From Patescibacteria group bacterium (GTDB taxonomy: Bacteria; Patescibacteriota; Patescibacteriia; 2-12-FULL-57-11), in assembly GCA_004297205.1 (NCBI GenBank), contig SCUL01000002.1, forward strand, positions 658,893 through 722,892: a DNA stretch of 64,000 nucleotides, given 5' to 3'. Made by a program: the position numbers and the translations under genes. Positions 7,527 through 51,689 of this stretch are shown in pieces; within the stretch, counting starts at the first letter, position 1, and each line of letters starts with the position of its first letter. The notes under the pieces are model-generated. The model had not been told where the DNA came from. It made no database searches and saw only the letters and a program-made list of their open reading frames with translations.

Positions 7527-9038
7527 CTATCGGGCGCCTTCCATGCAATCCCAGAGGTCGCCGGAGATGGAGGCGATGACGGTTGCAACCAGGCTTCCCG
7601 GACTGCCGACCGGTCCGAGCGTCGACAAGGAACTACCCAGGGTTGTTGGTACGGCGTGACAGCCTGAGGGAATATCGCAGGGATTGTCACGACAGCCGTT
7701 CGGGAAGTTGGGAGCCGCTCGTAATGGATTGATCAGTACCGAGCCGCCACCGTACTGGTCTATTATCATTTCCTCCATGCGCAGCGTCGTGCTGCCGTGC
7801 CGCATCATGAGTTGCGCGTCATAATCGCCGCAGCTGCGGACGGCACTGCAATCGATCGTGGCAAGTGCGCAGACATCGAGTATTGCGTCGAATCTGCTGT
7901 CCTGGGCGTAGACGCAGTCCTTGTGCGTGCTCCCGGTGCTGATCGGTCGGAATCGTCGGCATGCGGCGTCATTTTCGGAGAGGCCCCAGTCGCTCAGATT
8001 TTCTTGTGTGATCGTCGGACAGGCCACGCAACCGTAGCCGCTTCTGCCGCGCAGCACGCAGGCTTCGTTTTCGCCGCTGCACACCCCCCACGTGCAGGTG
8101 TTGGTTGCCAGCCGGGTTCCATCCTGTCGCGCCACAGTTCCGTCTTCTCCGCAGCGCCCGGAGGTGGGCGTGACGGTGAACGTCGCACGGTCGAAGTCTT
8201 CGCATTTGTTCGCGGTGAGCGTCTCCACGGTTTGGATTTCCGGCACGATGATGTTGCGCAGCGTCACCAGATCCGGGTTGATCGTCTGGAGGAGCGTGAA
8301 TGAACCGAGCAGGAGCAGCAGGCCGAGAATGGCGTTGGTGATCCGGCCGCGCGCTGCGCCGACGGCCGAGGGGTTGCCGCGGGCCGTCATGTACTGGAAG
8401 CCGCCGACCACGACCATGACCATGGCGAGCGTCACCCCGACGCCGAGTCCGTAGCGGTAGAGGGCCGTGACGTAGGAGGGGATGTCCACGGCCGAGGCGT
8501 AGCTGCCGATGGTCACTTCGAGCGGAACGGGTCCGGCCGCGGGCTCCGGTTCCCCGCCGCTCGTTGTGGGACCGCCGGTCGGCGCCTCGCCCGCGACCGT
8601 GACCGTGACGGAGGCGCTTTCCGTGATCTGCCGGTCGTCCAGAAGCACGCGGCCGCGGAAGAGGTAGGTGCCCGGGGAGGACGGCGCCGGGATGTTGAAG
8701 TCCCAGTTGTCATCCGTCGCATCGCGGAATTCGGGGTTCGGGATCAGGTCCCAGGTCGGCGTTCGGCGGACGACGGAGTCGATGCTGTTGTAGGTCTGGC
8801 GCGTCTCGCCGACGAGGATCACGCTCGGGTCCGTCACCCCCTCGCCGTCGCACGGCGCGGTGAAGCGGAACTTGAAAGTGAAGCGCAGGGTGCTCCCCGG
8901 CGCCACGTCCGTTTTTGGGTTGACGTCGAACCGGACGGCCCCGGGCGTTTCGTCGCAGGGCGCGGCCAGGACCGGCGCCGGGAGGACCGCGGCGAGGACG
9001 AAGATGAGCGCGGCGAGGAGCGCGGGAGCGCGGCGCAT
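7527..9038 (-). CDS. secreted Cys-rich protein with a central TrbC/VirB2-like pilin hydrophobic hairpin
   Basis: Signal peptide [26 protein letters not shown] and an N-terminal beta-rich domain. After a Pro/Gly/Thr linker comes a TrbC/VirB2-like double hydrophobic segment ([27 protein letters not shown]...[21 protein letters not shown]). The C-terminal ~260 aa carry ~22 Cys. The start overlaps the stop of the DsbA-like gene. Confidence 0.55.
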
Positions 9039-12087: not shown

Positions 12088-12174
12088 GGGCGAGTGGCGG
12101 AACTGGCAGACGCACTAGCTTCAGGAGCTAGCGGGCGCAAGCTCTTAAGGGTTCGACTCCCTTCTCGCCCACCA
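12088..12174 (+). tRNA. tRNA-Leu (anticodon CAG), class II with long variable arm, CCA encoded
   Basis: 7-bp acceptor GGGCGAG/CTCGCCC, anticodon loop TTCAGGA, long variable arm, T-arm AAGGG-TTCGACT-CCCTT, 3' ACCA. Confidence 0.85.
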
Positions 12175-12210
12175 GGGTAAATCAGATACGAGGGATGGAG
12201 TCGAACGGAT

Positions 12211-12239
12211 TTGACAAAAGCTGAAATTTTTGGCATAAT
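12211..12239 (+). promoter_or_regulatory. strong sigma70-type promoter TTGACA-17 nt-CATAAT upstream of RNase J
   Basis: Consensus -35, 17-nt spacer and near-consensus -10, about 200 nt upstream of the RNase J start. Confidence 0.6.
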
Positions 12240-12438
12240 ACTCACGATGTTTCTTGCCCCCCGCCCTGGCGGGGCGGCCCGTCCCGCTCAGCGGGACCCG
12301 TTCCTTCAGAACCAGTAGTCAGAGGATGCTTTCCGAGTTTTTGGTTTTTCGGAAACCCTCCGTTGATTATTCGTGCGCCGGACACGCCGCAGGGCCTGCG
12401 TATCGCCCGCTTCCGTAGCCGCCGCAACCACACAACAC

Positions 12439-14268
12439 ATGTCACCACAGAACACTCCGACGTCGTCCCAGGCGCCGTCCCGCTCAGCGGGACCGCGCCG
12501 CGACGACCGTCGCCATTTCCGCGGCCGCGGGCCGCGGGGACCGCGTCCCCCGGGCGCATCCGTGCCGCAGGGAGCTCCGCACATCAAGGAGTTCACCGGC
12601 GCTGACGGCAAGAAACTCAAGATCATCGTGCTCGGCGGCCTCGAAGAGGTCGGCCGGAATTGCACGTTGGTCGAATACGAAAACGACATCATCTTCATCG
12701 ACATGGGGCTGCAGTTCCCGGAAGAGGACCAGCCCGGGGTGGACTACATCATCCCCAACATGTCCTACGTCCGCGGCAAAGAAAAGAACATCCGCGGCGT
12801 GATCATCACCCACGGCCATTACGACCACATCGGGGCCATCCCGCACGTCGTGCCGCGCATCGGCAATCCGCCGGTCTTCGGGCTGCCGATGACCGCGGGC
12901 ATCATCAAGAAGCGCCAGGAAGATTTTGAAGGCGTGAAGATCAACATCCGCGAGGTGAAGATCGACGACCGGCTCGTGCTCGGCAACTTCCAGGTCGAGT
13001 TCGTGCACATCAACCACTCCATTCCCGACGCCGTGGCCGTCGTCGTCCATACGCCGGTCGGTACCATCATCCATACCGGCGACTGGAAATTCGACTACAC
13101 GCCGATCGGCGCACCGCCGGCCGACTTCATCAAACTGGCTTCGCTGGGCGCCCGCGGCGTGCTCGCGCTCATGGGCGACTCCACGAACGCCGCCCATGCC
13201 GGTCACCAGATTTCGGAGCGCGAAATCGCCAACACGCTGCGGTTGATCCTGGAGAAGGCGCAGGGCCGCGTCATTGTCGGCACCTTCGCCTCGCTTTTGG
13301 GCCGCGTCCGCCAGATCTTCGACATCGCCCAGGACCTGGGCAAGAAGGTCGCGCTCGACGGCTACTCCATGAAGACCAACGTGGAGATCGCCCGCGTGCT
13401 CAAGTACATCAACATCAAGCCGGGTACGCTCATCGACATCGCCCAGATCAACGACTACCCCAAGGACAAGGTCGTGGTAGTCTGCACCGGCGCCCAGGGC
13501 GAAGAGCGGGCCTCGCTCATGCGCATCGCCAACGATGAGCACCGCTCGGTCCGCATTCAGCCGGCGGACACGGTCATCTTTTCGTCCTCCGTCATTCCGG
13601 GGAACGAGCGCACCGTGCAGCGGCTCAAGGACACGCTCTACCGCAAGGGCGCGGACGTCATCCATTACCAGATGATGGACGTGCACGCCGGCGGCCACGC
13701 CATGAAGGAAGACATCAAGTTGATGCTCCTTCTCCTGAAGCCGAAGTACTACATCCCCATCGAGGGCAACCACTTCCTGCTGCGTGAAAACGCCAAGGTG
13801 GCCGCCATGATGGGCATCCCCAAGGAGAACATCTTCGTCGCCGACAACGGCCAGGTCATGGAATTCGTGGCCGGCGGCAAGGGGCGCCTCTCCGACGTCA
13901 AAGTGATGGCCGACTACGTCTTCGTGGACGGCCTCGGGGTGGGCGACATCTCGGAAGTCGTGCTGCGCGACCGCCAGGCGCTGGCCGAAGACGGCATGGT
14001 CGTCGTCGTCGCACCGGTCGCCAAGCGCACCGGCGGGCTCGCCGGTAATCTCGAGATCGTCTCGCACGGCTTCGTGCAGGTGGAACATAACCAGGCGCTG
14101 ATCGACGAGCTGAAGAAACACGTCGAGAAGATCCTGATCGACAAAGACACCAAGAGCGAAGCCGACCCCGACGACATCAAGCGCAAGATCCGCGACGACG
14201 TCGGCGCCTTCCTTTTTACGAAGACGCAGCGTCGGCCGATGATCCTGCCGGTGATCATCGAGGTGTAA
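12439..14268 (+). CDS. rnj: ribonuclease J (metallo-beta-lactamase/beta-CASP RNase)
   Basis: KLKIIVLGGLEEVGRNCTLVEY N-terminal pattern, HGHYDHIG metal motif and full beta-CASP/C-terminal domain. Start uncertain: ATG 12439 or GTG 12373. Both give an Arg/Pro-rich low-complexity N-terminal extension. Confidence 0.9.
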   Translation: MSPQNTPTSSQAPSRSAGPRRDDRRHFRGRGPRGPRPPGASVPQGAPHIKEFTGADGKKLKIIVLGGLEEVGRNCTLVEYENDIIFIDMGLQFPEEDQPGVDYIIPNMSYVRGKEKNIRGVIITHGHYDHIGAIPHVVPRIGNPPVFGLPMTAGIIKKRQEDFEGVKINIREVKIDDRLVLGNFQVEFVHINHSIPDAVAVVVHTPVGTIIHTGDWKFDYTPIGAPPADFIKLASLGARGVLALMGDSTNAAHAGHQISEREIANTLRLILEKAQGRVIVGTFASLLGRVRQIFDIAQDLGKKVALDGYSMKTNVEIARVLKYINIKPGTLIDIAQINDYPKDKVVVVCTGAQGEERASLMRIANDEHRSVRIQPADTVIFSSSVIPGNERTVQRLKDTLYRKGADVIHYQMMDVHAGGHAMKEDIKLMLLLLKPKYYIPIEGNHFLLRENAKVAAMMGIPKENIFVADNGQVMEFVAGGKGRLSDVKVMADYVFVDGLGVGDISEVVLRDRQALAEDGMVVVVAPVAKRTGGLAGNLEIVSHGFVQVEHNQALIDELKKHVEKILIDKDTKSEADPDDIKRKIRDDVGAFLFTKTQRRPMILPVIIEV

Positions 14269-14278
14269 GAAACGGAAC

Positions 14279-14306
14279 AAAGGGCGGGGCAACCCGCCTT
14301 TTGTGT
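14279..14306 (+). terminator. rho-independent terminator after rnj
   Basis: GGGCGGGGCAACCCGCC hairpin followed by TTTTGTGTTT. Confidence 0.7.
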
Positions 14307-14360
14307 TTATCTTGACGTTTCCCCTATTTTCCTGTATCTTCCTGTGGCATCCTTTGAAAA

Positions 14361-14748
14361 GACGCCCAGGAAACCAGACGACCGCGGCGATTCCTTCGGG
14401 AATCGTTGAGGAAAGTCCGAACACCGATGCCGTCGCAAGGCGGCATGAGTGGCAGTCGCGAAATGCGACCGGGAGCAAGGGATCGATCGTTCTCTCGGGT
14501 TACGAGAGAGTGGCTGATCCTCCAAGCCCAGGGACAGTGCAACAGAAAAGACACCGCCGATGGCCCCGCAAGGGGATCAGGTAAGGTTGAAATCGTGGGG
14601 TAAGAGCCCACGCGGGACATGCCTCGTGAGGGGCGCCGTGGAAAACACCTGCCCGGTGCAAGAGCAAGTTTGGTCGCTCGCATAGAGAGATGGTCGTCAC
14701 TCCGCTTCGGCGGGGGACAGAATTCGGCTTACCGGTTTGCTGGGTGTC
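14361..14748 (+). ncRNA. rnpB: RNase P RNA, bacterial type A
   Basis: P4 strands GAGGAAAGTCCG (14408-14419) and ACAGAATTCGGCTTAC (14717-14732). A long run matches the E. coli M1 RNA core: CCAGGGACAGTGCAACAGAAAAGACACCGCCGATGGCCCCGCAAGGGGATCAGGTAAGGTTGAAATCGTGGGGTAAGAGCCCAC. A ~15-bp P1 helix pairs the 5' and 3' ends. All ORFs across it are artefacts. Confidence 0.9.
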
Positions 14749-24457: not shown

Positions 24458-25405
24458 CTACTTTCCGCGCAGACGGTTCGCGAGCCGGTACAACGTATAC
24501 CAGAACGGGCGCAGCGGCAACTCCTGCGCCCCCGGCAGGGACACGCGCTGCCCGCCGAAGCCGGTCTTGAAGCGGGTGATGCCGGTCCAGCGATGCGAGG
24601 CGGGTGCGTCGGGCGGCGCGACGCCCCAGAAGTCATACCTCGTGCAGCCGGCGAGCTTGGCGATGCGCATGGCCTCGCCGTGCAATAGATACGGCGCCAT
24701 CAGGTTGCGCTTCAGGTCGGCCGAGGCGCCGTGCAGGTACGTTGCCGTGTCGCCGAAACGGATCAGGATCATGCCGGCGAGAAGATCATCCTCGTGTTCG
24801 GCGATGACCAGATGCGCGGTGCAGGTCTGCGCGTCCTCAAGCGGACCGGCGAGCGCGGTAAGCATCTTCTGATAGTACCCCTCCGGATGCAGGGAGAAGC
24901 CGTCGCGTTTGGCCGTGGCCGCGAATATCTGCCAAACGGCGGGCCAGTCTCCGGCGCCGCCGATGCGTACGGTGACGCCGTGCTTCTGCGCCAGGCGCAG
25001 ATTGTAGCGCGTCTTGTGGTGCATGGCCGCCAGCAGCGCCTCCTCGGATTGCGTCAGGTCCAGAAGGAGCGTGTGCTCCGGCAGGCGCGCGGCTGCGGCG
25101 GTGCCACCCGCGACACCGGCGGACGCGGCCGCTTCGACGTGCAGAAAGGTGCCGTTCGTTTTCTTGAGATCGCCGATGAGGCGCTCGGCGAGCGCCTGCG
25201 TGAACGGTGCGCGGAAAACATCCCATTCGGTGAGGCCACCGGGCAACGGCCGGGACACGACCTGCGCCGCAACGCCGCCCTGCTCGTAGCGGCGCACCTC
25301 GCGGCCGACGTTGCGTTGGAATTCACCCCACTGCCATGACTGCAAGAACGCCCCCGAAACGGGAGCGTGGGCGAGCGCGGCGCGGTTCCATTCCTGGGGC
25401 GACAT
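24458..25405 (-). CDS. FemAB-family peptidoglycan interpeptide-bridge aminoacyltransferase (FemX-like)
   Basis: 315 aa with the FemAB/PF02388 pattern (YNLRLAQKHGV...FLVWTT..., C-terminal RYDFWGV). Confidence 0.75.
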   Translation of the reverse strand: MSPQEWNRAALAHAPVSGAFLQSWQWGEFQRNVGREVRRYEQGGVAAQVVSRPLPGGLTEWDVFRAPFTQALAERLIGDLKKTNGTFLHVEAAASAGVAGGTAAAARLPEHTLLLDLTQSEEALLAAMHHKTRYNLRLAQKHGVTVRIGGAGDWPAVWQIFAATAKRDGFSLHPEGYYQKMLTALAGPLEDAQTCTAHLVIAEHEDDLLAGMILIRFGDTATYLHGASADLKRNLMAPYLLHGEAMRIAKLAGCTRYDFWGVAPPDAPASHRWTGITRFKTGFGGQRVSLPGAQELPLRPFWYTLYRLANRLRGK

Positions 25406-25498
25406 GCCGCCATCCTACAAAAGAAAACCCCGAGGGGCTAGAGGCAGCGGGGATTGACAGGCAGGCTTGGCGGTGCGGGAGGGGCGCCGTGATACAGT

Positions 25499-25951
25499 AT
25501 GGCTGTGGATATGCCGAGCAAGAAAAGATACGTCACGGAAGAGTACTTGGAGACCCGCTTGGACAAGCTCGTCCAGGAGGTCGCGGTTGTATTTCAATCG
25601 AGTTTTTCCGAACAACAGGTCCAGATCAATGAGTTGCGCGAGATGGTCAGGCAGGGTTTTGGGATACTTGATGGTTTTGTGGGAAAGATGAATCGTCTAC
25701 ATACGCTTCGTGAGGTCCATCGCTGCCTCCGATCCGTGAGTCGCTTCGCCGCCACATGCCTTCGGGATGTTCCACCCGTCGGTCACGCTGCGGTTCGTCG
25801 CTCCTCGTCCGATATCACCAGTCAGTCTGATGTTCTCGGAAGAGGAGAGGATCTTGGAAGACCCTCTGGAACGGCCGTCGCCCGTTCCTGCCTGTGCGCT
25901 ACGTCTCGCGCACGAGGTCGATTGCGGCCTGCAGATCGGACATATTCCTGA
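25499..25951 (+). CDS. hypothetical small protein (only the N-terminal ~78 aa unique part is convincing)
   Basis: The N-terminus MAVDMPSKKRYVTEEYLETRLDKLVQEV... looks like a real amphipathic protein. From ~25738 the frame reads through repeat element R1, so the C-terminal ~70 aa may not be genuine. Confidence 0.3.
   Translation: MAVDMPSKKRYVTEEYLETRLDKLVQEVAVVFQSSFSEQQVQINELREMVRQGFGILDGFVGKMNRLHTLREVHRCLRSVSRFAATCLRDVPPVGHAAVRRSSSDITSQSDVLGRGEDLGRPSGTAVARSCLCATSRARGRLRPADRTYS
25738..25892 (-). repeat. intergenic repeat element R1 (long form, tail A)
   Basis: Begins GAGTCGCTTCGCC...GGGATGTTCCACCCGTCGGTCA and ends with the hairpin GGAACGGCCGTCGCCCGTTCCTGCC. The core is diverged. Confidence 0.7.
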
Positions 25952-26111
25952 TCCGGTCCACCAGGCCCACCTTCCTGAGCACCGCGCTGATTTCCCTGCC
26001 ACCCGTCGTCAGGCCGGCCTCGGCCAGCAGCGCCTCGGCCTTCTCCTTCGCCTCGAGCAGGGAGCATCGCTGCGTCTCATGCAGCACCCCCATGACGACC
26101 ATTCTGTTCAT
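25899..26111 (-). CDS. hypothetical small protein (70 aa)
   Basis: MNRMVVMGVLHETQRCSLLEAKEKAEALL..., preceded by GGAGA-7 nt-ATG immediately after repeat R2. Confidence 0.4.
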   Translation of the reverse strand: MNRMVVMGVLHETQRCSLLEAKEKAEALLAEAGLTTGGREISAVLRKVGLVDRIRNMSDLQAAIDLVRET

Positions 26112-26123
26112 GTCTTCGTCTCC

Positions 26124-26293
26124 AGTCGCTTCGCCGCTGCGCGCCTTCGGGATATTCCACCCGTCGATCATGCCGCGTTCTCGTTCCTCGTCTCACGCCA
26201 CGAGTACCTGCTCATGCCTTGAGAAGAGGAGAGGGCGCTTGCGCGTACCGCATCGCCCCCGAGACTTTGACCGCTGTCTCCTGCGGGCCGTGT
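26124..26293 (-). repeat. intergenic repeat element R2 (long form, tail B)
   Basis: AGTCGCTTCGCC...GGGATATTCCACCCGTCGATCA...CCTCGTCTCACGCCACGAG...CTCATGCCTTGAGAAGAGGAGAGG, plus hairpin tail GAGGGCG...CGCCCCC. It sits between the stop of the 172-aa gene and the RBS of the 70-aa gene. Confidence 0.75.
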
Positions 26294-26812
26294 TCACGGC
26301 GTTTCGAGCATGTCTTCCCACGTTCGATCATCGCCCCATTCTGCCTGAACGAGGCGTGCGCCGGCTGGTGTCCAGACACCGCACTGCACCGACATCCAAC
26401 TGACTCTCGGGAGATTCACCGGATCGATGCGAGTGAAGAGCTCGGCCGCCTTCCTTTCGTGGAAGTACCCGATGAGACGGCTGTCGCTCCGATTGTCGTA
26501 ACCGCCATCCGGAAGCTTGAACGGAAGGCAGCCCTCGGGGTGTGTCACACCGTAGACCAGGTGGCCGTCCGAAGCGTCGACGCGGAAACGGACGCGGTAG
26601 ACCCTGCCGATGCTGCTGACGGCTTCCGCGGAAGCCGGTTGGATCTCGGGAGCTTCTCCCTTGAAGAACACGACGATCCAGCCGCAGACGGTGAGAGGTA
26701 CGACTTGGACGCGCAGCTCGCGAGCACGCTTGCGCAGGACGTTCGCCTGGCGATTGAGCTCCTCGACCTGCGACTCCACGCTCTTCAGTTCGCTGACCAA
26801 TAGATGAACCAT
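26294..26812 (-). CDS. hypothetical membrane protein (N-terminal coiled coil, one TM segment, C-terminal domain)
   Basis: 172 aa, SD GGGAGAAAAAATG, MVHLLVSELKSVESQVEELNRQANVLRKRARELR, then TM segment VVPLTVCGWIVVFF. Confidence 0.5.
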   Translation of the reverse strand: MVHLLVSELKSVESQVEELNRQANVLRKRARELRVQVVPLTVCGWIVVFFKGEAPEIQPASAEAVSSIGRVYRVRFRVDASDGHLVYGVTHPEGCLPFKLPDGGYDNRSDSRLIGYFHERKAAELFTRIDPVNLPRVSWMSVQCGVWTPAGARLVQAEWGDDRTWEDMLETP

Positions 26813-26838
26813 TTTTTCTCCCGTTCTCCTTTTTGTTT

Positions 26839-26929
26839 CCTCGTCTCACCGCACGAGCGTCGCTCATGCCTTGAGAAGAGAAGGAGTCGCGTGACTCCTT
26901 GGAACGGCCGTCGCCCGTTCCTGCCTTGA
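26839..26929 (-). repeat. intergenic repeat element R3 (short form, tail A)
   Basis: Core CCTCGTCTCACCGCACGAGCGTCGCTCATGCCTTGAGAAGAGAAGGAG plus hairpins AAGGAGTC-acgc-GACTCCTT and GGAACGGCCGTCGCCCGTTCC. The last hairpin abuts the stop of the lipoprotein gene. Confidence 0.7.
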
Positions 26930-27322
26930 TCAGGGAAACGTCGCCACCCATCCGTTCGGAAGGACGAACTCCTCTGCCGGACCGACGTTCCCGGTGGCCA
27001 CCTCGCCGACGAAATTGCCGTCGATGATCTGGATGTTCCGGAGGTGCGCCTCACGAGCGGGAACCACTCGGCAGCGGCTCCGGACGTGGAAGCCATCGGC
27101 GGCTTCGCAGTGGCCACGCTCGTTGGCGGCATCCGGACCGAACCATGTGCCGCGACCGTCGCGCTCGCAGGTCGCCTCGCAGAGCACGTCGGCAGGCTGC
27201 GGACAGCCCGCCTCGATGATGGCGACGGCTTCGGCCAGGTTGTCGTAGCAGGCATCGCCCTCCGACGGAGGCGACTGCGTGCAGCCGACCAGCATCAGAG
27301 CAGAGAAGATGATTGCACGCAT
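26930..27322 (-). CDS. lipoprotein (lipobox LVGC)
   Basis: MRAIIFSALMLVGC-TQSPP signal/lipobox, 130 aa with 8 Cys. Internal Met of ORF 26930..27586. Confidence 0.6.
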   Translation of the reverse strand: MRAIIFSALMLVGCTQSPPSEGDACYDNLAEAVAIIEAGCPQPADVLCEATCERDGRGTWFGPDAANERGHCEAADGFHVRSRCRVVPAREAHLRNIQIIDGNFVGEVATGNVGPAEEFVLPNGWVATFP

Positions 27323-27336
27323 CGCACACCCCATTG

Positions 27337-27507
27337 AGTCGCTTCGCCGTCGCATGTCTCCGGGATATTCCACCCGTTGATCACGTTTCGGTTCATCGCT
27401 CCTCGTCTCACGCCACGAGCGTCGCTCATGCCTTGAGAAGAGGAGAGGGCGCGTGCGCGAATCGCCGCACCCTCGAGACTTTTTTCGTCGGCTGTCTCCC
27501 GCCGGAA
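27337..27507 (-). repeat. intergenic repeat element R4 (long form, tail B)
   Basis: The best-conserved copy: GAGTCGCTTCGCCGTCGCATGTCTCCGGGATATTCCACCCGTTGATCACG...CGCTCCTCGTCTCACGCCACGAGCGTCGCTCATGCCTTGAGAAGAGGAGAGG, plus tail GAGGGCGCG...CGCACCCTC ending at the stop of the upstream gene. Confidence 0.75.
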
Positions 27508-28095
27508 CTACTTCCGCCACCTCGCGATCTCCTTGAACGTGGCCTCGTCCACCTCTAGACCGGGGGATGATCCGAGGGTCCACCACCGCCGCGGCGGTGC
27601 GGCGACGTCCTTCATCGCCGCCTCGTACTCGTCGACCTCGATGAGGTCGAACAGGACCGACGCGTCGAGACCGATCGCATCATCGATCTCAAGAAGACGC
27701 GCGGCCAGGCCGCTGTCCGCCGTTTCCATGAGCGCGCGCTCGAGTGAGCAGCGCGCCGCGAAGCACGAGCGGACGGTGTGGAACTCGTCAACACCGCACG
27801 GCAACTCGCCGTTCGCGATGAGGGGGAGGATTCCCGCCATTTCCTCGAACTCCTCAGCGCATGCGAGCGCGTAGCGGAGTCCGTCCTCCTCTCTTTTCGC
27901 CGTCATCTGTGCGGCGGCGTCGCACATGTTGCGGAGATCGGCCACCTCCCTTCGCACCTCTTCGGCGGTGTCAGGCTCGCACCCGCACACCCCCTCGTCG
28001 GTGCGGCATGGACAACCCATGCCGGAGTGCCCGTATGGGCGCTCCGAGAAGTTCTTTACCCTCTCTGACCCACAGAAAGCACAAGCCATGTGCAT
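27508..28095 (-). CDS. hypothetical Cys-rich (zinc-ribbon-like) acidic protein
   Basis: Internal Met of ORF 27508..28302 (MHMACAFCGSERVKNF...GMGCPCRTDEGVCGC...). SD AAGGAG precedes the start. The upstream part of the long ORF is repeat-encoded. Confidence 0.5.
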   Translation of the reverse strand: MHMACAFCGSERVKNFSERPYGHSGMGCPCRTDEGVCGCEPDTAEEVRREVADLRNMCDAAAQMTAKREEDGLRYALACAEEFEEMAGILPLIANGELPCGVDEFHTVRSCFAARCSLERALMETADSGLAARLLEIDDAIGLDASVLFDLIEVDEYEAAMKDVAAPPRRWWTLGSSPGLEVDEATFKEIARWRK

Positions 28096-28108
28096 CTCCT
28101 TTTTTCTT

Positions 28109-28262
28109 GAGTCGCTTCGCCACAACGCGCCTCCGGGATATTTCACCCATCGGTCACATTGTAGCTCATCGCTCCTCGTCTCACACCACGAGCGGATTCG
28201 TGAGTTGAGATGAAGAAGAGGATCTTGGAAGACCCTCTGGAACGGCCGTCGCCCGTTCCTGC
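28109..28262 (-). repeat. intergenic repeat element R5 (long form, tail A)
   Basis: GAGTCGCTTCGCCACAACGCGCCTCCGGGATATTTCACCCATCGGTCA...CCTCGTCTCACACCACGAG...GAAGAGGATCTTGGAAGACCCTCTGGAACGGCCGTCGCCCGTTCCTGCC. Confidence 0.75.
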
Positions 28263-28268
28263 CGATTG

Positions 28269-28447
28269 CTACTCGTTCAATGCCATCTCCTCGATCAACC
28301 ACCGTTCGTCGGGGTCCTCGAGGTCCATTTCGTACTTCTCCGCGAGTTCCAACACTCGCTGCGCGAACAGCTGCTGCGCCTTTGTTTCATCGAACCCGGC
28401 GGCGATGAAGTCACCGAGGGTGAAGGCTGCCGTCTCGTACACTGCCA
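28269..28447 (-). CDS. hypothetical small acidic protein (~59 aa)
   Basis: MAVYETAAFTLGDFIAAGFDETKAQQLFAQRVLELAEKYEMDLEDPDERW..., SD GAGGAGG directly after R6. Below the ORF-track length cutoff; coordinates are approximate. Confidence 0.35.
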
Positions 28448-28453
28448 TGGTTT

Positions 28454-28544
28454 CCTCCTCGTCTCACGCCACGAGCGTTGCTCATGGTTTGAGATGAAAA
28501 GAGGATCTTGGAAGATCCCCTGGAACGGCCGATGCCCGTTCCTG
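28454..28544 (-). repeat. intergenic repeat element R6 (short form, tail A)
   Basis: CCTCCTCGTCTCACGCCACGAGCGTTGCTCATGGTTTGAGATGAAAAGAGGATCTTGGAAGATCC...GGAACGGCCGATGCCCGTTCCTGC. Its second hairpin GGATCTT-gg-AAGATCC shows compensatory changes relative to R1/R5. Confidence 0.7.
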
Positions 28545-28597
28545 CTTGCCCCGAGCGAAGTCGAGGGGCCTGTCCCGCGCGTCTCGCGGGACTGTAG

Positions 28598-28689
28598 TGG
28601 CACCGTCGGGAGTCGAACCCACTGATTGCCCCGACACTTGGTGTTGCCAAGCTGGAGAATCCCCTCCATATATATCGTCAGGCAGTGCC
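28598..28689 (-). other. tRNA-like fragment / pseudo-tRNA (possible integration-site remnant)
   Basis: On the minus strand: GGCACTG...GTGGG-TTCGACT-CCCGA-CGGTGCC-A. There is a 7-bp acceptor-like pairing including one G.U and a canonical T-arm/T-loop. No D-arm or anticodon arm could be folded. It is followed by an 8-bp GC hairpin GTCCCGCG/CGCGGGAC. Confidence 0.25.
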
Positions 28690-28718
28690 TTGTGCGCCCT
28701 TTGTCGAGGCGCTGTTCA

Positions 28719-28841
28719 CTACTTTTTGTCGCTGTCCTCCTGAACCGCGATCCAGCCGCGCTTGATGGCGTAACGGACCAGCAACGCGCCGGCAGAACAG
28801 ATCATGACCCAGATGAACGCAACGATGATGATCTTCAACAT
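28719..28841 (-). CDS. hypothetical 40-aa single-TM protein
   Basis: MLKIIIVAFIWVMICSAGALLVRYAIKRGWIAVQEDSDKK, SD GAGGAGG-4 nt-ATG directly after R7. Confidence 0.3.
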   Translation of the reverse strand: MLKIIIVAFIWVMICSAGALLVRYAIKRGWIAVQEDSDKK

Positions 28842-28845
28842 GCGA

Positions 28846-28930
28846 CCTCCTCGTCTGACCGCACCACCGGAGTGATGCCTTCGGAAGAGGAGAGAGCGCA
28901 TGCGCGATCCGCATCGCTCTCTGGACCCGT
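28846..28930 (-). repeat. intergenic repeat element R7 (short, diverged core, tail B-like hairpin)
   Basis: CCTCCTCGTCTGACCGCACCACCGGAGTGATGCCTTCGGAAGAGGAGAGAGCG-catgcgcgatccgcat-CGCTCTC. The hairpin is perfectly complementary and shows compensatory changes versus R2/R4. Confidence 0.6.
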
Positions 28931-28965
28931 TTTGTTTCTCCGGTGGGGTCCGAACCGGTTGTGCC

Positions 28966-29238
28966 TCAGCGCGAGGCGTAGATGATGGCCTCGCCATCGG
29001 CCACGATGTGCGTGGTTCCGACGGTGTACTCCTCGTGGGAGCGCAGCGTCTCGACCACCACGGGCACACGACCGACGATCTCGATCGTGTCGAGGACGAT
29101 CACGTGGCTTTCGGGCCGCGTGGTCTCCCGCGCCTCGTGGCGCTCTTCCCAGGCGAGAACCGCCGGGGACGTCATCGTGAGCGACGCGAACGCCGAGAGG
29201 CAGAGAACCGCGAACCCGAGCACCATGAGCTTCGTCAT
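28966..29238 (-). CDS. hypothetical secreted protein (~90 aa, signal peptide)
   Basis: Internal Met MTKLMVLGFAVLCLSAFASLTMTSPAVLA of ORF 28966..29529. The upstream part of that ORF is low-complexity. Confidence 0.45.
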   Translation of the reverse strand: MTKLMVLGFAVLCLSAFASLTMTSPAVLAWEERHEARETTRPESHVIVLDTIEIVGRVPVVVETLRSHEEYTVGTTHIVADGEAIIYASR

Positions 29239-29480
29239 CTTCGTTTTTCCGTTTTCCCGGTAGAGCTCTCCGCAGTGGCGTTTCCGCGTACTGAGTGCTC
29301 TCCGCCACACGACCCGATCTCTCACCCTCAGGTCTTGTGGCGGTGGGTTTTCAAGGTCCGCTTCGGCCGGCACCTGTGACGACAAGCTGCACATGTGCCG
29401 TCCGGTTCCTCCTTTTCCATCCTTAAAGAACGCATGACTATAGCATGCCCAAGCGGTTTTGTCAAGCCTGCGCCTGGCAT

Positions 29481-29512
29481 AAAGCAAAGAAAGTGGCTCA
29501 TCTGAGCCACTT
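29481..29512 (-). terminator. rho-independent terminator downstream of ruvA
   Basis: Perfect 10-bp palindrome AAGTGGCTCA-tc-TGAGCCACTT, followed on the minus strand by a T-rich run. Confidence 0.7.
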
Positions 29513-29539
29513 TCCCTGTATAGAGCCAAGAAACACGTG

Positions 29540-30091
29540 TTATTTTCTCTTCAAAATAGCCAGTGTTTTTTTGAACCGTTCGGCATCCGGAAGATCCATG
29601 GAAACGGCGCTGAGCGCGGCTGCCGCTTCCTGCTTGCCGTAGCCCATGGTGACGAGCGCGTCCTGCAGATCGTCGGTCGGGCCGTCGTCGGCATCCACCA
29701 GCTTTCCCTTGAGTTCGAGGACGATTTTTTGGGCGGTTTTTTTGCCGACGCCGTGGGCCGAGGAAATGGCGCCGATGTCGCCCCGCTCGATTGCCGAGCG
29801 CACCGTCTGCGGGCTGCCCATGGCGAGGATGGCCAGCCCGGTGCGCGGTCCGACCCCGGAAACCGCGATCAGCTGCCAGAATAGTTCGAGCGCGTCGAGC
29901 GTGGCAAAGCCGAAGATCTCGCGGCCGTCGTCGCGGATCGCTTCATGGGTGTAGAGCGTGGTGCTGCTGCCGGGCGCGTTCTTGGCGAGCAGGTCCGCCG
30001 CGCACACAACACGGTAGCCGACCCCGGCCACGTCGATGATGACGTAGTCGTTGCCGCGGGCCAGGATTGTTCCGGTGAGAGAAGCGATCAT
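29540..30091 (-). CDS. ruvA: Holliday junction DNA helicase RuvA
   Basis: 183 aa with the RuvA N-terminal OB domain, helix-hairpin-helix pair and C-terminal domain pattern. Confidence 0.9.
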   Translation of the reverse strand: MIASLTGTILARGNDYVIIDVAGVGYRVVCAADLLAKNAPGSSTTLYTHEAIRDDGREIFGFATLDALELFWQLIAVSGVGPRTGLAILAMGSPQTVRSAIERGDIGAISSAHGVGKKTAQKIVLELKGKLVDADDGPTDDLQDALVTMGYGKQEAAAALSAVSMDLPDAERFKKTLAILKRK

Positions 30092-44937: not shown

Positions 44938-45011
44938 GGGCCGCTAGCTTAGTGGCAGAGCACCCGGTTTGCATCCGGGAGATGAGGGTTCGATTCCCTC
45001 GCGGTCCACCA
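44938..45011 (+). tRNA. tRNA-Ala (anticodon TGC), CCA encoded
   Basis: Acceptor GGGCCGC/GCGGTCC with the G3.U70 Ala identity pair, anticodon loop TTTGCAT, T-arm GAGGG-TTCGATT-CCCTC, 3' ACCA. Confidence 0.85.
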
Positions 45012-45171
45012 GAGAGAACCTAACCCAGACAATAAGGTGGAAGTGCATGACGGCGCTCAAGAAAGCGCCGTTTTCGTTCCCGATCGATCCGGGTAGTTCC
45101 GTCCACGACACCAGGAGAGAAACCGAACCCAAGATAAAGAAAGAGACTGAGCAAAGTCAGTCTCGTGGACG

Positions 45172-45393
45172 TCAGTCGTCCTGGCTATCTCCGCTCTCAT
45201 CGGGGATTACGCCCCAAAGGCGGAGGTAGGGCTTTCCGAACGTGGTTCCCATGAAGAAGCCGACCTGGATCGCGACGAACGCGACCGCAGTCGGCCACCA
45301 GAGGGGAACAAGGAACGAGAGCACGAGAACGTTTCCGAGCAGATGTGCCGTGGCGAACTTCCACTGACGCTGAGTTCCCATTCTCGGGTTCAC
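45172..45393 (-). CDS. hypothetical small membrane protein (2 TM helices)
   Basis: 73-aa ORF with two hydrophobic helices. Confidence 0.4.
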   Translation of the reverse strand: MNPRMGTQRQWKFATAHLLGNVLVLSFLVPLWWPTAVAFVAIQVGFFMGTTFGKPYLRLWGVIPDESGDSQDD

Positions 45394-45432
45394 TCCTTTC
45401 CCGAGATCGAAGACCCAGCCCCGATGGAATCT

Positions 45433-45972
45433 CTAGCCTGTACGACGCAGCTCTACGTACAGAATCATGATTCCTGACTCGTCGATACGATTCGCTACCA
45501 AGTAGCCCGTCATCGCGTCGCCCATCGGACTGATTTGGAGTAGCCCGGCTCCGAAATCGTGCGTCCGAGGATCATCACTGGCAAACGCGAGTCGCACAAA
45601 GTCGTCGTGCTCGAAGTGCATGTCCTCGATGACCTCGTGGTAGTTCGAGCCTGCGCCCCCGTCCACGATCGTGACCGCCTCGATGATTCCGCCGAGTCCG
45701 CCCGCGGTCGGTACCAAAGTCAGGGTAACCTGGAAATGCCGGGCCGGGGATCCCAGAGCAGCGTGACCCGCGTTGACAATGACTTCGTCAGATACTCCCT
45801 CCCATCGCCCGGTCACATCGCGGGTGGGCGACTCTGCTGCTGCGACGGGCGTCGGACTTCCACGGCCAGTCGTGAGAGTTGCGGCCGCGGTGATGAGAGA
45901 TGCCAGGATCGCGGTCCCCGCGCCCACGAGCGTCATCGTTCGCGTCGACCAGCTGCGCGCTGCCATGCTCAC
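45433..45972 (-). CDS. hypothetical secreted protein
   Basis: 179 aa with N-terminal signal-like segment MSMAARSWSTRTMTLVGAGTAILASLITAAA. Confidence 0.5.
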   Translation of the reverse strand: MSMAARSWSTRTMTLVGAGTAILASLITAAATLTTGRGSPTPVAAAESPTRDVTGRWEGVSDEVIVNAGHAALGSPARHFQVTLTLVPTAGGLGGIIEAVTIVDGGAGSNYHEVIEDMHFEHDDFVRLAFASDDPRTHDFGAGLLQISPMGDAMTGYLVANRIDESGIMILYVELRRTG

Positions 45973-46010
45973 CTCCGTGTGGGCGTCCTCGGGTTACCCT
46001 GCCCGGACGT

Positions 46011-47480
46011 TCAGGTCCTGTCAACGGGGACAGCGACCGCGGGTGCGTCTACAGTCTGTCCGCGGAGCTCGCGCCACGCGGGCCGGACGATGATCTCCGG
46101 ACTGCCGCCGACGATCTCGATGCACTCGACGACGCCGTCGACGGCCCGGCGTCGCAGCACGGGGTCGGGCGAAGCGAGCCACGCCTCGCAGTTCTCCGCG
46201 ATCTCGAGCAGCGCCTGTGTCCCGCGGGTCTCCTCCCCGTCGACCTTGACCGCGCGCAGCCTGCTCTCGCAGGCGCGCATCGCCTGATGGATGTCCGTGA
46301 ACTCCTTCTCGTAGGCGCCGATCGAGACAAGCTCGTTCGCCATCCGCATGACGAGCTGCCGGTACTGGACGTCGAGGCCGCGGCGACCGGCGCGAAGCGC
46401 GCGTACCTGCTCGGCCTGACGCGCAGTCTCCCGACGCATCTCCTCGCGGAGCTGCCGCCGCAGGATTGGTGCAGCACGTTCGGCCAGCCGTAGATCGCGC
46501 ACCTGCCGCACCACCTCCGTCTCGAGCGGCTCCGCTGCGGTGAGGTACCGGCAGGTGCTCCCGGCCCAGTGGCAGCGGTAGTAGGAGTAGACGCGGCCGG
46601 AGGGCTTCACGTGCCGCTCGGGGATCAGGTTCTTCCCGCAGCTCGGGCACCTCACCTTCCCGGAGAGCAGATGCTCGAGCCGTATGCGGGTGCGCCCGCC
46701 CGAGTCCTTCTGACGGAAGACCTCCTGGACGCGGGCGAACACCTCGCGCGAGACGAGCGCCGGGTGCGTTCCGTCGTGCTCGATGCCGCGCACCCGCATG
46801 ATGCCGGCGTAGAACGGGTTCTTGAGCAGGCGGCACAGGCCCGTCGCCGTGACCCGCTTACCGGTCCTCGAGACCAGGCCCTTCCGGTGGAGCTCGTCGG
46901 AGAGGGTGGTCGTCGGTACGGTGCCGGTCGCGAAGCGCTCGAAGGCTTCGCGCATCATCGGCGAGCGAGCCGGGTCGATGAGGACCCGGCCGCGTTCCTT
47001 GAGGTAGCCGACGGGTACCGCCCGAGCCCACCGGCCGCGGCGCAACGACTCGTCGATGCCTTTGCGGATCTCGAGACCGAGATTCGCGCTGTAGAACTCG
47101 GCGTGTGCAGCCATGATGTGTTCGAGGAACTCGCCCATCGGGTTGTCATCGAAACCCTCGACGAGGGAGACGATGCGCACCCCGACGCGGCGGAGCTTTC
47201 CCTTAAGAGTGAGGTAGCCGTAGATGTTCCGGGCGAGCCGATCGACGCGATGGACGAGCAGGACGTCGACCGTGCGGTCCGAGCTCGCGTGCCGCAGCAG
47301 CGACAACAATCCGGTACGTCCACGAAGCGTCTTGCCTGAGCCGACGTCCTGATACTCGCCGGCGATGGGCCAGCGTTCATCGGTAGCCCGGCGCCTGAGC
47401 GCGTGGAGCTGGGCGGGGATCGAGAGATCGCGCTCGGCCTGCTCACCGGTCGAGACGCGGGCGTAGAGAAGGACTGACAT
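46011..47480 (-). CDS. large serine recombinase (resolvase/invertase catalytic domain + recombinase domain + zinc ribbon)
   Basis: YARVSTGEQ catalytic-Ser motif, recombinase domain and CPSCG...C zinc ribbon. Start taken at MSVLLYARVSTGEQ; the ORF track's 47504 start is an upstream GTG. Confidence 0.85.
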   Translation of the reverse strand: MSVLLYARVSTGEQAERDLSIPAQLHALRRRATDERWPIAGEYQDVGSGKTLRGRTGLLSLLRHASSDRTVDVLLVHRVDRLARNIYGYLTLKGKLRRVGVRIVSLVEGFDDNPMGEFLEHIMAAHAEFYSANLGLEIRKGIDESLRRGRWARAVPVGYLKERGRVLIDPARSPMMREAFERFATGTVPTTTLSDELHRKGLVSRTGKRVTATGLCRLLKNPFYAGIMRVRGIEHDGTHPALVSREVFARVQEVFRQKDSGGRTRIRLEHLLSGKVRCPSCGKNLIPERHVKPSGRVYSYYRCHWAGSTCRYLTAAEPLETEVVRQVRDLRLAERAAPILRRQLREEMRRETARQAEQVRALRAGRRGLDVQYRQLVMRMANELVSIGAYEKEFTDIHQAMRACESRLRAVKVDGEETRGTQALLEIAENCEAWLASPDPVLRRRAVDGVVECIEIVGGSPEIIVRPAWRELRGQTVDAPAVAVPVDRT

Positions 47481-47481
47481 A

Positions 47482-47510
47482 CTGAGGTGGTTACGGGTTA
47501 CCACCTCAGC
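47482..47510. promoter_or_regulatory. GC-rich hairpin CTGAGGTGG-ttacgggttac-CCACCTCAG abutting the recombinase start codon
   Basis: 9-10 bp stem immediately 5' of the recombinase ATG. Candidate operator or att-associated site. Confidence 0.35.
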
Positions 47511-47699
47511 GTGCCAAACATCATCTCGAGGACGAACGCGCGTCGTCAGTGGGAGAACGGGACGAAGATGTCCCCACCCAGCATGCAGAATCGTAACGGC
47601 GGTGGGAGGTGGGCGTGGGACACACGATGTCGACAGTTGTCCACAAATCGAGAGCGGTGTGATTGAATTGGCGCCAGCCGGCTGCTGATCTCAAAGAGA

Positions 47700-47733
47700 A
47701 AACCCCTCGGCGCAGGACGTCCGAGGGGTCTCG
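47700..47733 (-). terminator. rho-independent terminator after the Cas2-like gene
   Basis: CCCCTCGG-cgcaggacgt-CCGAGGGG, followed on the minus strand by TTTTCTCTTT. Confidence 0.65.
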
Positions 47734-47742
47734 ATCGGTGGC

Positions 47743-48015
47743 TCAGCTGACGTTATTGTGCATCCACCGGAGGACGACGTCGTCAAGATTTTCAGACCAC
47801 CAAGAAGTCGTCATCCTGGTGATCAGCAGCCGGTCATTCGCGTCGAGACCGCCGGAGCCAAGGAGGTGGGTACGGAGTTCATCGCCCGAGAGAGACGTCT
47901 TCACCAGCCAGACGGATTCAAGAGGCCTGGCATAGGCGAACTGCCGCAGCGCCGCGTGCAATGTCGAATAGTCCTTCCCCACCTTCCGGAGATCGTAGCT
48001 GACCAAGTAGGTCAT
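47743..48015 (-). CDS. stand-alone Cas2/VapD-like small protein
   Basis: 90 aa, MTYLVSYDL...VGKDY..ALRQFAYARPLESVWLV... matches the Cas2 beta-alpha-beta layout (YDV....VAK...YG.RVQNSVF). No cas1 and no CRISPR array in the window. Confidence 0.35.
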   Translation of the reverse strand: MTYLVSYDLRKVGKDYSTLHAALRQFAYARPLESVWLVKTSLSGDELRTHLLGSGGLDANDRLLITRMTTSWWSENLDDVVLRWMHNNVS

Positions 48016-48147
48016 GTGATTGTTGGGCCGCCAGTGTGCTACACTAGTCGTGGTCCTGCTCCACGTCGCGCGTGCTTGGAGCGGCCGCTCTAGGAATGAA
48101 TGGACCGTTATCCCGGTCCATTCGGTATTTTCCCGCAGGTGTGAATC

Positions 48148-48177
48148 TTTGTCAACTTACTCCACACGGGTTGACAA
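48148..48177 (+). promoter_or_regulatory. inverted repeat TTGTCAAC-N13-GTTGACAA overlapping a -35 TTGACA upstream of the XRE gene
   Basis: Perfect 8-bp arms. The right arm contains TTGACA about 31 nt upstream of the ATG. Candidate autoregulatory operator. Confidence 0.45.
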
Positions 48178-48207
48178 CATCCATGTGCCTTGTAAAGATA
48201 GACCTCT

Positions 48208-48561
48208 ATGCAAACCCTTGGTGAGAAGATCAAGGTTCTCCGGGTGGCCAAGGGAATGACGCAGGAGGATCTGGCCGGGAAGCTTGGCTACTCGAAGTCT
48301 TTCATTTCCTATATTGAGAGTGGCGAGCGGAATCTGAGTGACGTCGATACCGATCGTATCGCGAAATGCCTAGAAGTGAGCGCGGAAGACCTTCGTTCGA
48401 AAGGTGCCGTCGTTTCGTTTCAGTTTCGTTCATCGAAGGTCGGCACAGACGAGGAGCACCGCAAGGTTGCTCAGAAGTTCACAGATTACGCGAGGAAACT
48501 AATCGAGGATTCGGATTCCAACCAGGAAGCCAGCGTATGGAAGGGCAGTCAGAAAAGATAA
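48208..48561 (+). CDS. XRE-family helix-turn-helix transcriptional regulator
   Basis: KIKVLRVAKGMTQEDLAGKLGYSKSFISYIESGERNLS HTH. Confidence 0.8.
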   Translation: MQTLGEKIKVLRVAKGMTQEDLAGKLGYSKSFISYIESGERNLSDVDTDRIAKCLEVSAEDLRSKGAVVSFQFRSSKVGTDEEHRKVAQKFTDYARKLIEDSDSNQEASVWKGSQKR

Positions 48562-49013: not shown

Positions 49014-49099
49014 GTGCGATTCCACTTCGCTTTCAGGAAGTGATTTCTAACATCGTTGATTGGGGTCCACCAAAAGGATTCCAGCATTTGCCATGAAAT

Positions 49100-49660: not shown

Positions 49661-49663
49661 GAT

Positions 49664-50125: not shown

Positions 50126-50187
50126 GAGAGGATAAATTCGGTGAAATAGCTGCTAGAATCAGAGAGGTGGAGGGACGGTCGTAGCCG

Positions 50188-51099: not shown

Positions 51100-51241
51100 T
51101 TTTTCAATCGGGCGGAACAAAAGCCGAGGCGGGGTGAGTCCCGTTACGCTCGGGTTGCGATTACCGCCAGTGCCTTCGTAGTCGATACGGTGATACAATG
51201 CTTCCGTCGATCATGGCCATTCATCATTTAACAGAACGGGT

Positions 51242-51589: not shown

Positions 51590-51609
51590 ACTCGACTTCG
51601 CCATCGCAC

Positions 51610-51633: not shown

Positions 51634-51636
51634 GTA

Positions 51637-51665: not shown

Positions 51666-51689
51666 CGCGCCGGTGGAAGGAGGACCACG

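Follow-up and report, generated by a model that had tools for sequence, protein, structure and literature searches.

Does a short sequence resembling part of a transfer RNA (tRNA), lying in an array of small genes on a Patescibacteria chromosome, mark the past integration of mobile DNA, is it a chance resemblance, or is it an RNA in its own right? The sequence lies on the minus strand of a 64,000-nt stretch of contig SCUL01000002.1 (hereafter the window), where an initial annotation, made from the letters alone, had described an acceptor-type pairing and a T arm and read them as the 3' half of a tRNA, a scar of site-specific integration that would support a mobile origin of the array. We find instead that the element, 92 nt long, forms a closed structure of five helices, maintained by compensatory changes in seven distinct homologues. 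On this comparative evidence it is a structured, conserved RNA that is tRNA-like and has no anticodon, and its position makes it a candidate processing signal within a small-gene operon.

Results

A closed five-helix fold with the ends of a tRNA

Read on the minus strand from 28689 to 28598, the element opens with GGCACUG and ends in UGGG-UUCGACU-CCCG-A-CGGUGCC-A; between these lie, in 5' to 3' order, CCUGAC, GAUAUAUA, UGGAG-GGGAUU-CUCCA, GCUUGG-CAACA-CCAAGU, GUCGGG and GCAAUCAG (Table 1). The outermost segments pair as an acceptor stem of 7 bp with a single U.G pair (U6.G67), and the T loop UUCGACU matches U54 U55 C56 R57 A58, so that the pairing with one G.U and the canonical T loop described by the initial annotation are both where it placed them. 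The T stem had also been called canonical, which is only partly right: in the window it has 4 bp (a U.G and three G-C pairs), and the would-be fifth pair is a G.A mismatch. The 13-nt core of the T arm, GGGTTCGACTCCC, is identical to that of the tRNA-Leu(CAG) of the window.

The middle of the element, which had been described as impossible to fold within the 92-nt span, folds into a 6-bp helix, P2, that ties two linkers together and encloses two hairpins ordered like the D and anticodon arms of a tRNA. Five helices (the acceptor stem, P2, a D-like hairpin H1, a short hairpin H2 and the T arm) are common to all of the homologues, and P2 is 6 bp long in every one of them. Neither of the middle hairpins obeys tRNA rules. 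The loops of H1 are 3–6 nt long and contain GG in all seven homologues, and those of H2 are 4–6 nt (CAACA, CAAACA or CACCA, with a GCAA tetraloop in the homologue L010) and hence offer no anticodon. The equivalents of the linker GAUAUAUA are 7–9 nt long and start with GA throughout. By analogy with tRNA structure, the GG of the H1 loop may be the counterpart of G18-G19 of the D loop and could form an elbow with Psi55-C56. No CCA is encoded by the element; all three real tRNAs of the window encode theirs.

Because the 5' acceptor strand GGCACUG is present and pairs in all homologues, and because the 92 nt make up a closed structure, the reading as a 3' half fails. The tRNA-likeness itself stands, in the acceptor stem, the T arm, the discriminator A and the weak covariance-model matches to real tRNAs described below.

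Table 1. Coordinates of the element, its parts and the neighbouring features, numbered from the first letter of the window.
Feature	Coordinates	Strand	Remarks
tRNA-like RNA	28598–28689	minus	92 nt; G1 at 28689, discriminator A at 28598; minimum free energy (MFE) fold, seven homologues, covariation
Acceptor stem, 5' strand GGCACUG	28683–28689	minus	Pairs with 28599–28605
Helix P2, 5' strand CCUGAC	28677–28682	minus	Pairs with 28630–28635; no counterpart in tRNA
Linker GAUAUAUA	28669–28676	minus	A/U-rich, single-stranded; unpaired in every fold
Hairpin H1, UGGAG-GGGAUU-CUCCA	28653–28668	minus	D-arm position
Hairpin H2, GCUUGG-CAACA-CCAAGU	28636–28652	minus	Anticodon-arm position, without a 7-nt anticodon loop
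Helix P2, 3' strand GUCGGG	28630–28635	minus	
Junction GCAAUCAG, P2 to T arm	28622–28629	minus	Single-stranded; unpaired in every fold; 6–8 nt among homologues
T arm, stem UGGG/CCCG, T loop UUCGACU	28607–28621	minus	
Acceptor stem, 3' strand CGGUGCC, and discriminator A	28598–28605	minus	Strand at 28599–28605, A at 28598
3' trailer CUACA	28593–28597	minus	CUACA or CUACG in five of seven homologues
8-bp GC hairpin GUCCCGCG-AGACG-CGCGGGAC	28572–28592	minus	5 nt past the discriminator
Three further hairpins	28490–28569 (28548–28569, 28522–28542, 28500–28521)	minus	Terminator scan, repeat family D5, fold
59-aa gene downstream of the element	28269–28448	minus	Divergent member of a small-protein family
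Upstream GC hairpin GCGCCU...GGGCGC	28694–28712	minus	Ends 4 nt before G1, just past the stop codon of the 40-aa gene
40-aa membrane-peptide gene upstream of the element	28719–28841	minus	Open reading frame (ORF); also called in the identical Logan contig L001 and in L007
Sigma-70-type promoter TTGACA-17-TATAGT	29437–29465	minus	11/12 matches; after the ruvA terminator; same promoter in L010

Compensatory change and selection

The loci of relatives (numbered with the prefix L) were gathered through RuvA homologues and through the small protein encoded downstream of the element, and a pattern scan of metagenomes, which returned two contigs only, added L013. One covariance model, R1, was built from the first four copies and another, R2, from the element and its homologues. 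Seven distinct homologues were recovered, with R1 scores of 117 bits for the window copy, 126 for L007, 124 for L015, 124 for L017 (the same as L013), 113 for L002, 69 for L014 and 57 for L010. The only matches of R1 or R2 beyond these were weak ones on real tRNA-Leu and tRNA-Ala, R2 giving 20 bits to the tRNA-Leu and 19 bits to the tRNA-Ala of the window. The covariance model found no second copy in the window or in any locus, and switching off the filters brought up no element in L006, L016 or L011; at L023 the upstream DNA is too short for its presence to be judged. The carriers are Patescibacteria with RuvA proteins 87–94% identical to one another, and the distribution is very narrow, with seven sequence variants from one genus-level clade across the public data searched. 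L002 and L004 come from groundwater of the Hainich well H41.

Across the seven sequences 99% of the alignment cells at paired positions are paired, and 13 of the 28 pairs have changed on both sides; none of 500 shuffles reached the observed covariation, and sliding the partners by 1–3 columns left at most two such pairs. This alignment was fitted to the model, and the independent check is a MAFFT alignment, from which RNAalifold returned the same 28 pairs. The common fold is also the MFE fold of six of the seven sequences taken singly. All seven acceptor pairs are kept in all seven homologues, pair 5:68 being C-G or U-A and pair 6:67 U.G, C-G or U-A. The third pair of P2 is U-A, U.G or A-U, and in the T stem pair 50:64 is U.G, U-A or C-G and pair 51:63 is G-C or A-U. 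The stem of H1 occurs as GGAG/CUCC, GGACG/CGUCC or GGAC/GUCC, with double changes at three of its five pairs, and H2 shows double changes at all six and is fully rewritten in L014 and L010, the same two copies in which a 5-bp T stem abuts the 7-bp acceptor stem as in a real tRNA. Conservation of the sequence itself is concentrated in the first four acceptor pairs, the invariant A73, P2 and the T loop (UUCRAYU in all seven), whereas H1 and H2 vary freely. The single-sequence fold z-score of about -2 is modest on its own, so that it is the conservation and covariation in the homologues that make the case for something more than chance.

Among the five closely similar copies, which we call type A, the element is 87–97% identical. 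The same comparison gives 79–87% for ruvA DNA overall and 56–71% at its third codon positions, 62–78% for the downstream spacer and 57–71% for the 60 nt upstream. Being more conserved than its flanks and than silent positions of ruvA, the element is, to judge from these comparisons, under selection. A protein-coding explanation was considered and rejected: an ATG at 28669 opens an ORF of 124 aa, but L007 and L002 have 1-nt indels in the H1 loop and the frame is not conserved. The copies in L014 and L010 are about 70% identical to type A, although their ruvA genes are as close to that of the window as are the others. The tree of the element is not congruent with that of ruvA. The partner gene downstream diverges in parallel with the element, unlike ruvA, which suggests that the two travel together as a cassette with its own history.

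Comparison with tRNA and with described RNA families

ARAGORN finds only three tRNAs in the window, Leu-CAG, Arg-CCG and Ala-UGC, and the element matches none of them, as had been noted from the outset. In its default, -ps and -i modes the program makes no call for the element or its six homologues; with thresholds lowered to 80% it makes inconsistent calls (Trp, Ala) in three of the seven. The Rfam tRNA model, RF00005 (gathering threshold 29 bits), gave no match even at E<=10 in scans of 2.3 kb and of 116 nt. The sole Rfam match in the tRNA-like part is 13 nt of the T loop against transfer-messenger RNA (tmRNA), at 6.8 bits and E = 0.31, which is not significant (gathering threshold 47), and three more sub-threshold matches (E about 1–10) overlap other parts of the element. 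There was no Y-RNA match in Rfam and no tmRNA call by ARAGORN -m. Of the features that define RF00005, the element has the 7-bp acceptor stem and, stacked with it, a T arm whose loop fits U54-U55-C56-R57-A58; it lacks a 5-bp anticodon stem with a 7-nt loop bearing U33. Set against the canonical tRNA as a whole, the element has in common the 7-bp acceptor stem, a T stem of 4–5 bp, UUCRAYU, the discriminator A and the cloverleaf order of helices; it differs in having no 7-nt anticodon loop, no U8, no standard D arm and no encoded CCA, and in possessing the extra helix P2.

Several known tRNA mimics share part of this architecture. Like tmRNA, the element retains an acceptor stem and T arm, has lost the anticodon arm and has a long helix leaving the tRNA-like core, but its third acceptor pair is C3-G70 and not G3.U70, it has no tag reading frame and no pseudoknots, and it is 92 nt long only. 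Bacterial Y RNAs such as YrlA are also noncoding RNAs that combine an acceptor-like stem with a T arm and a D-like arm; there, however, the tRNA-like module is internal and the termini form the Ro60-binding helix, whereas the termini of the element form the acceptor stem and leave it with no Ro60-binding helix. No rsr-like gene was found among the roughly 40 larger ORFs of the window and the ORFs of the array that were scanned, a set from which several smaller ORFs were left out. The YrlA of Mycobacterium smegmatis is nevertheless instructive, as RNase P cuts this tRNA mimic, whose acceptor stem has 7 bp, and CCA is added to it; an acceptor stem of that length is a major determinant for RNase P (PMC4201824).

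A different kind of likeness is to the t-elements of plant mitochondria, to mitochondrial tRNA punctuation and to the mascRNA of MALAT1, in all of which a non-decoding tRNA shape stands at a transcript or gene boundary. Signals of the t-element type are thought to be cut by RNase P at the 5' side and by RNase Z at the 3' side, thereby setting mRNA ends. The element too is a tRNA-like fold at mRNA boundaries within one transcription unit, lying between the membrane-peptide gene and a gene for a protein of 59–62 aa in five loci and at the end of the unit in two. Those systems are organellar or eukaryotic, whereas the element is bacterial and its cleavage is one that we infer. We know of no bacterial operon-internal tRNA mimic of this shape, and none was found in the literature searched, in which no paper ties a tRNA-like RNA to Patescibacteria or to the Candidate Phyla Radiation (CPR); "tRNA-like" and "Candidate Phyla Radiation" co-occur in a single paper, about release-factor evolution. 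Among tRNA-derived RNAs that do not serve the ribosome, tRNA-Other of Bacillus cereus forms part of a longer transcript and influences the cell wall (PMC3399842), and the element likewise lies within a longer transcription unit near a FemAB-family gene. Both tRNA-Other and the cell-wall tRNA-Gly isoacceptors keep a cloverleaf and an anticodon loop and are recognised as tRNAs, which the element is not. Matching no family described in Rfam 15 or in the literature searched, it looks, as far as its sequence can tell, like a new family of tRNA mimics.

No parent tRNA and no integrase

The initial annotation had reasoned that if no tRNA of the genome shared the 3' half, and if covariance models scored it as background, then the resemblance would be a chance T-loop motif. 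Both observations hold: no tRNA has the same 3' half, and to the Rfam model of tRNA it is background. The consequence drawn from them is nevertheless wrong, since the element has been conserved, with compensatory changes in its helices. A single copy of the 23-nt 3' half is present in the window, the part of its own genome that was covered, where allowing <=3 mismatches brings up no further match; it is unlike tRNA-Arg, the sole tRNA adjoining the array. A scan of 185,579 species genomes for TTCRACTCCCRACGGTGCCA, which used one genome per species, found the element in the sister metagenome-assembled genome H41-bin083_1 and one chance match, inside a coding region of an Acidimicrobiia genome where there is no tRNA.

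Nor does the locus look like a site of integration. Between ruvA and femAB there are only small orphan ORFs and no recombinase or integrase. Two scans of IMG/VR gave no match and then four chance matches that failed the covariance model, and blastn against phages and plasmids found no homologue of the element. With no parent tRNA among the genomes scanned, no recombinase in or beside the array and a complete acceptor stem, the proposed integration scar is not borne out. The wider claim, that the array was acquired by horizontal or mobile transfer, does not hold up either, since the array occupies the same slot between ruvA and femAB in all relatives and varies by gain and loss of cassettes between repeated modules. 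We likewise set aside the array as an integron or integrated island, as there is no integrase and the flanking ruvA and femAB are conserved.

The only recombinase in the window is 17 kb from the element: a large serine recombinase (46011–47504, minus; Resolvase, Recombinase and Zn_ribbon_recom domains) that lies 1 kb from tRNA-Ala(UGC) (44938–45011). Beside it GC falls to 48–54% (against 65%) in a stretch with genes for an M78/IrrE peptidase, a cytidine deaminase and an EamA transporter, and the region 44938–52500 is probably an integrated element, beside which no duplicate of the tRNA-Ala 3' end was found.

The small-gene array around the element

The window belongs to a high-GC (~65%) chromosome of Patescibacteria, or CPR bacteria, its nearest RuvA homologues being named "Patescibacteria group bacterium". 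Its housekeeping genes are those for the CCA-adding enzyme, UvrA, RNase J, RNase P RNA, glycosyltransferases, FemAB, RuvA, NrdJ, IleRS, enzymes of the pentose-phosphate pathway and ValRS. The gene for the CCA-adding enzyme (PolyA_pol and HD domains) stands at the start of the window (within 28–1245), its N-terminus cut off by the window edge, and tRNA-Leu, RNase J and the RNase P RNA (143 bits, class A) are clustered at 12088–14747, the last of them at 14366–14747.

In all relatives an array of small genes lies between ruvA and femAB with tRNA-Arg, and all seven homologues of the element reside in it, downstream of ruvA. The length of the array ranges from 1.1 kb (L010) through 2 kb (L002) and 3 kb (L006) to 4.1 kb (the window), and in L014 and L015 three or four extra genes stand between ruvA and the array. 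Located at 25405–29540 in the window and syntenic in L002, L006, L010, L014 and L015 (RuvA 85–94% identical), it is a cassette hot spot of 1.1–4.1 kb, in which the cassettes are bounded by repeated modules of the 5' untranslated region (5'-UTR; CUCGUGGCGUGAGACGAGGAG) and by terminator modules and encode orphan signal-peptide, lipoprotein and membrane mini-proteins. The promoter that follows the ruvA terminator is, from its sequence, likely to be the start of the operon that contains the element.

Two further features of the array deserve mention. In the operon leader after the promoter there is a conserved 31-nt hairpin, GGCACAUGUGCAGCUUGUCGUCACAGGUGCC (29369–29399, minus), identical in L010 and L015 and with three mismatches in L011 and L016, whose stem GGCAC/GUGCC is identical in sequence to the outermost 5 bp of the element's acceptor stem. 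A repeated leader of about 100 nt precedes several array genes on the minus strand (25739–25850, 26124–26215, 27337–27448 and 28110–28221) and occurs also in L007 (about 8445–8550) and L017 (about 697–802). It includes GGCGAAGCGACU, which is invariant, and, around CGGG-UGGAAUAU-CCCG, a long imperfect hairpin; RNAalifold gives it 24 pairs, four with compensatory changes, and it has no Rfam match. It is possibly a cis-regulatory RNA or a leader-peptide element.

The upstream GC hairpin stands 4 nt before G1 in six of the seven loci and covaries in L014 (GCACCU/AGGUGC); the exception is L010, which also lacks the upstream genes. On the downstream side the loci are of two kinds. In five (L002, L015, L017, L014 and L010) the element is followed by an A/C-rich spacer of 34–41 nt and the ribosome-binding site (RBS) of a protein of 59–62 aa. 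After CUACR, the window and L007 carry an insertion made up of the 8-bp GC hairpin and the array's repeated terminator module; the window sequence continues into a repeated 5'-UTR module, and the L007 contig ends at this point. The 8-bp hairpin, written in the initial annotation as GTCCCGCG-cgtct-CGCGGGAC, had been reported to follow the tRNA-like part directly, in a feature beginning at 28575. The hairpin is real, but CUACA separates it from the discriminator and that start clips 3 nt of it. It is kept only in L007 (7/8 bp, same loop) and is absent from the five other loci, and since perfect 8-bp hairpins are common in the window (51, against 12.5 in shuffles) it is unremarkable by itself. 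The last of the three hairpins beyond it (28500–28521) runs into a U-rich tail and is one of the terminator modules that recur in the array. By sequence and placement, then, the 8-bp hairpin is the first stem of a predicted terminator cluster of ordinary type, outside the conserved RNA; the real tRNA-Arg is also followed by a terminator.

The partner gene follows the element in every locus for which downstream sequence is available. Its family comprises nine proteins in 5.8 billion sequences, and a profile search led to 21 small unannotated clusters; Pfam and NCBIfam contain no match for it. The AlphaFold model, a hairpin of two helices, has no counterpart in the PDB. The family (28269–28448 and the homologues P0121–P0148) carries the motif LEEVARQVGADLxDPEQFR, which is present twice in P0130 and P0134.

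Discussion

The element is most likely a lineage-specific, tRNA-like, non-decoding RNA. As to its role, the reading that we prefer, while holding it to be no better than evenly balanced, is that it is matured by tRNA enzymes such as RNase P within the small-gene operon and so punctuates the transcript. The element would be transcribed from the promoter downstream of ruvA, and the cell would handle it as a tRNA precursor, with an RNase P cut at G1, trimming of the 3' end and possibly addition of CCA. The small mRNA upstream would then be left ending in its own GC hairpin and 4 nt. In the five loci without a terminator cluster, the downstream gene for the 59–62 aa protein would gain a defined start, together with a 5' end that is base-paired or a short leader rich in A and C. 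For the window and L007, the element would instead be the last RNA before the terminator cluster that opens with the 8-bp hairpin, much as tRNA-Arg stands before its terminator. Handling by maturation enzymes is suggested because the features that have been retained, namely the 12-bp stack of acceptor and T stems, the T loop with its elbow and the discriminator, are those that such enzymes read, and RNase P RNA, a CCA-adding enzyme and RNase J are all encoded in the window. The position fits punctuation, with a protective hairpin ending 4 nt before G1 and either a terminator or a short leader on the downstream side.

A number of observations weigh against this reading. The processing step is one that we infer from structure and position, as are transcription and any effect on neighbouring mRNAs. 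A minihelix would suffice for RNase P, and the conservation of P2, H1 and H2, together with the near-invariance of acceptor pairs 1–4 and P2, suggests an additional or different partner. The T stem of L002 is degenerate. L006 and L016 carry the partner gene without the element, so that it must be dispensable or replaceable by an ordinary 5'-UTR hairpin module, and it cannot serve the downstream gene in the window and L007, since terminators stand between the two there. Finally, no gene for RNase Z was seen in the 64-kb window, which shows only part of the genome.

Some of these points could also be accommodated if the element were a stand-alone, trans-acting small RNA, a tRNA mimic that binds a tRNA-binding protein or is aminoacylated after maturation of the tRNA type. 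It is intact in the window and L007, two loci in which it has no coupling to the gene downstream and stands before a terminator cluster like a stable-RNA gene, and the contrast between conserved acceptor pairs 1–4, A73, P2 and T loop and freely varying H1 and H2 is a pattern fitting recognition by a protein. A CCA-adding enzyme is present, and a FemAB-family gene, at 24458–25405 in the window, lies 1–3.5 kb downstream on the same strand wherever the contig extends that far. Staphylococcal cell-wall tRNA-Gly isoacceptors have weak or mismatched T-stem pairs 49:65 and 50:64, a likeness that the T stem of the element recalls. Yet the element displays no identity set for an anticodon-independent synthetase, with no G3.U70 for alanine and no G73 for serine; of its identity features only A73 would fit LeuRS. 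The link to FemAB may merely reflect the location of the array, L006 has femAB without the element, and the accumulation of a discrete RNA is conjectural. We therefore regard a trans-acting role as unlikely, and its most specific form, a dedicated aminoacyl carrier without an anticodon that is cut by RNase P, given CCA and charged by a synthetase that ignores the anticodon, most plausibly for the downstream FemAB-family peptidoglycan transferase, as very improbable.

It could also be that the element acts in cis, as a 5'-UTR element of the gene for the 59–62 aa protein that binds a tRNA-binding factor or shields the 5' end from RNase J, an enzyme that is encoded in the window, and that would thereby govern how well the downstream mRNA is translated or how stable it is. 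In five of the seven loci it stands 34–41 nt before the start codon of a member of the same small-protein family with no terminator between, element and gene diverge in parallel, and the protein family is as narrowly distributed as the RNA. Against this, no alternative pairing between element and RBS was seen on inspection by eye, without a systematic search, and the spacer is mostly unstructured in folds of its context. The element remains intact in the window and L007 despite the intervening terminator cluster, and in three cases, L006, L016 and the window, the gene runs instead from the generic 5'-UTR module of the array. No clue to function came from the partner protein, and altogether we consider this role quite unlikely.

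The original suggestion, in the form of a decaying tRNA pseudogene or attachment-site scar without a function of its own, is largely refuted and in our view scarcely tenable: at either end variable DNA does begin some 5 nt or less from the element, a picture known from tRNA-linked integration sites, the T stem of L002 is degraded, some relatives lack the element and its tree disagrees with that of ruvA, but all five helices are maintained by compensatory changes, conservation is higher in the element than in the flanking DNA or at silent sites, its complete acceptor stem means that it is no half, its 3' half is found in no tRNA of the species genomes scanned, and the locus has neither an integrase nor a phage, plasmid or viral homologue.

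The element adds a family of tRNA-mimic RNA with strong covariation support that is unmatched in Rfam 15 or in the literature searched, and it comes from the Candidate Phyla Radiation, in which noncoding RNAs are almost unexplored, its carriers being a small group of ultra-small groundwater bacteria. It also carries a caution, since the two standard checks, scoring against a covariance model of tRNA and looking for a parent tRNA, were negative, and on their verdict an RNA that is real and under selection would have been discarded as a chance motif. If, as in the reading that we prefer, RNase P cuts the element, it would be a bacterial counterpart of organellar tRNA punctuation that organises the processing of a small-gene operon. 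If it is charged, it would show a tRNA stripped of decoding for another job, and were it to be a dedicated carrier, it would be the first bacterial aminoacyl carrier RNA without any decoding capacity.

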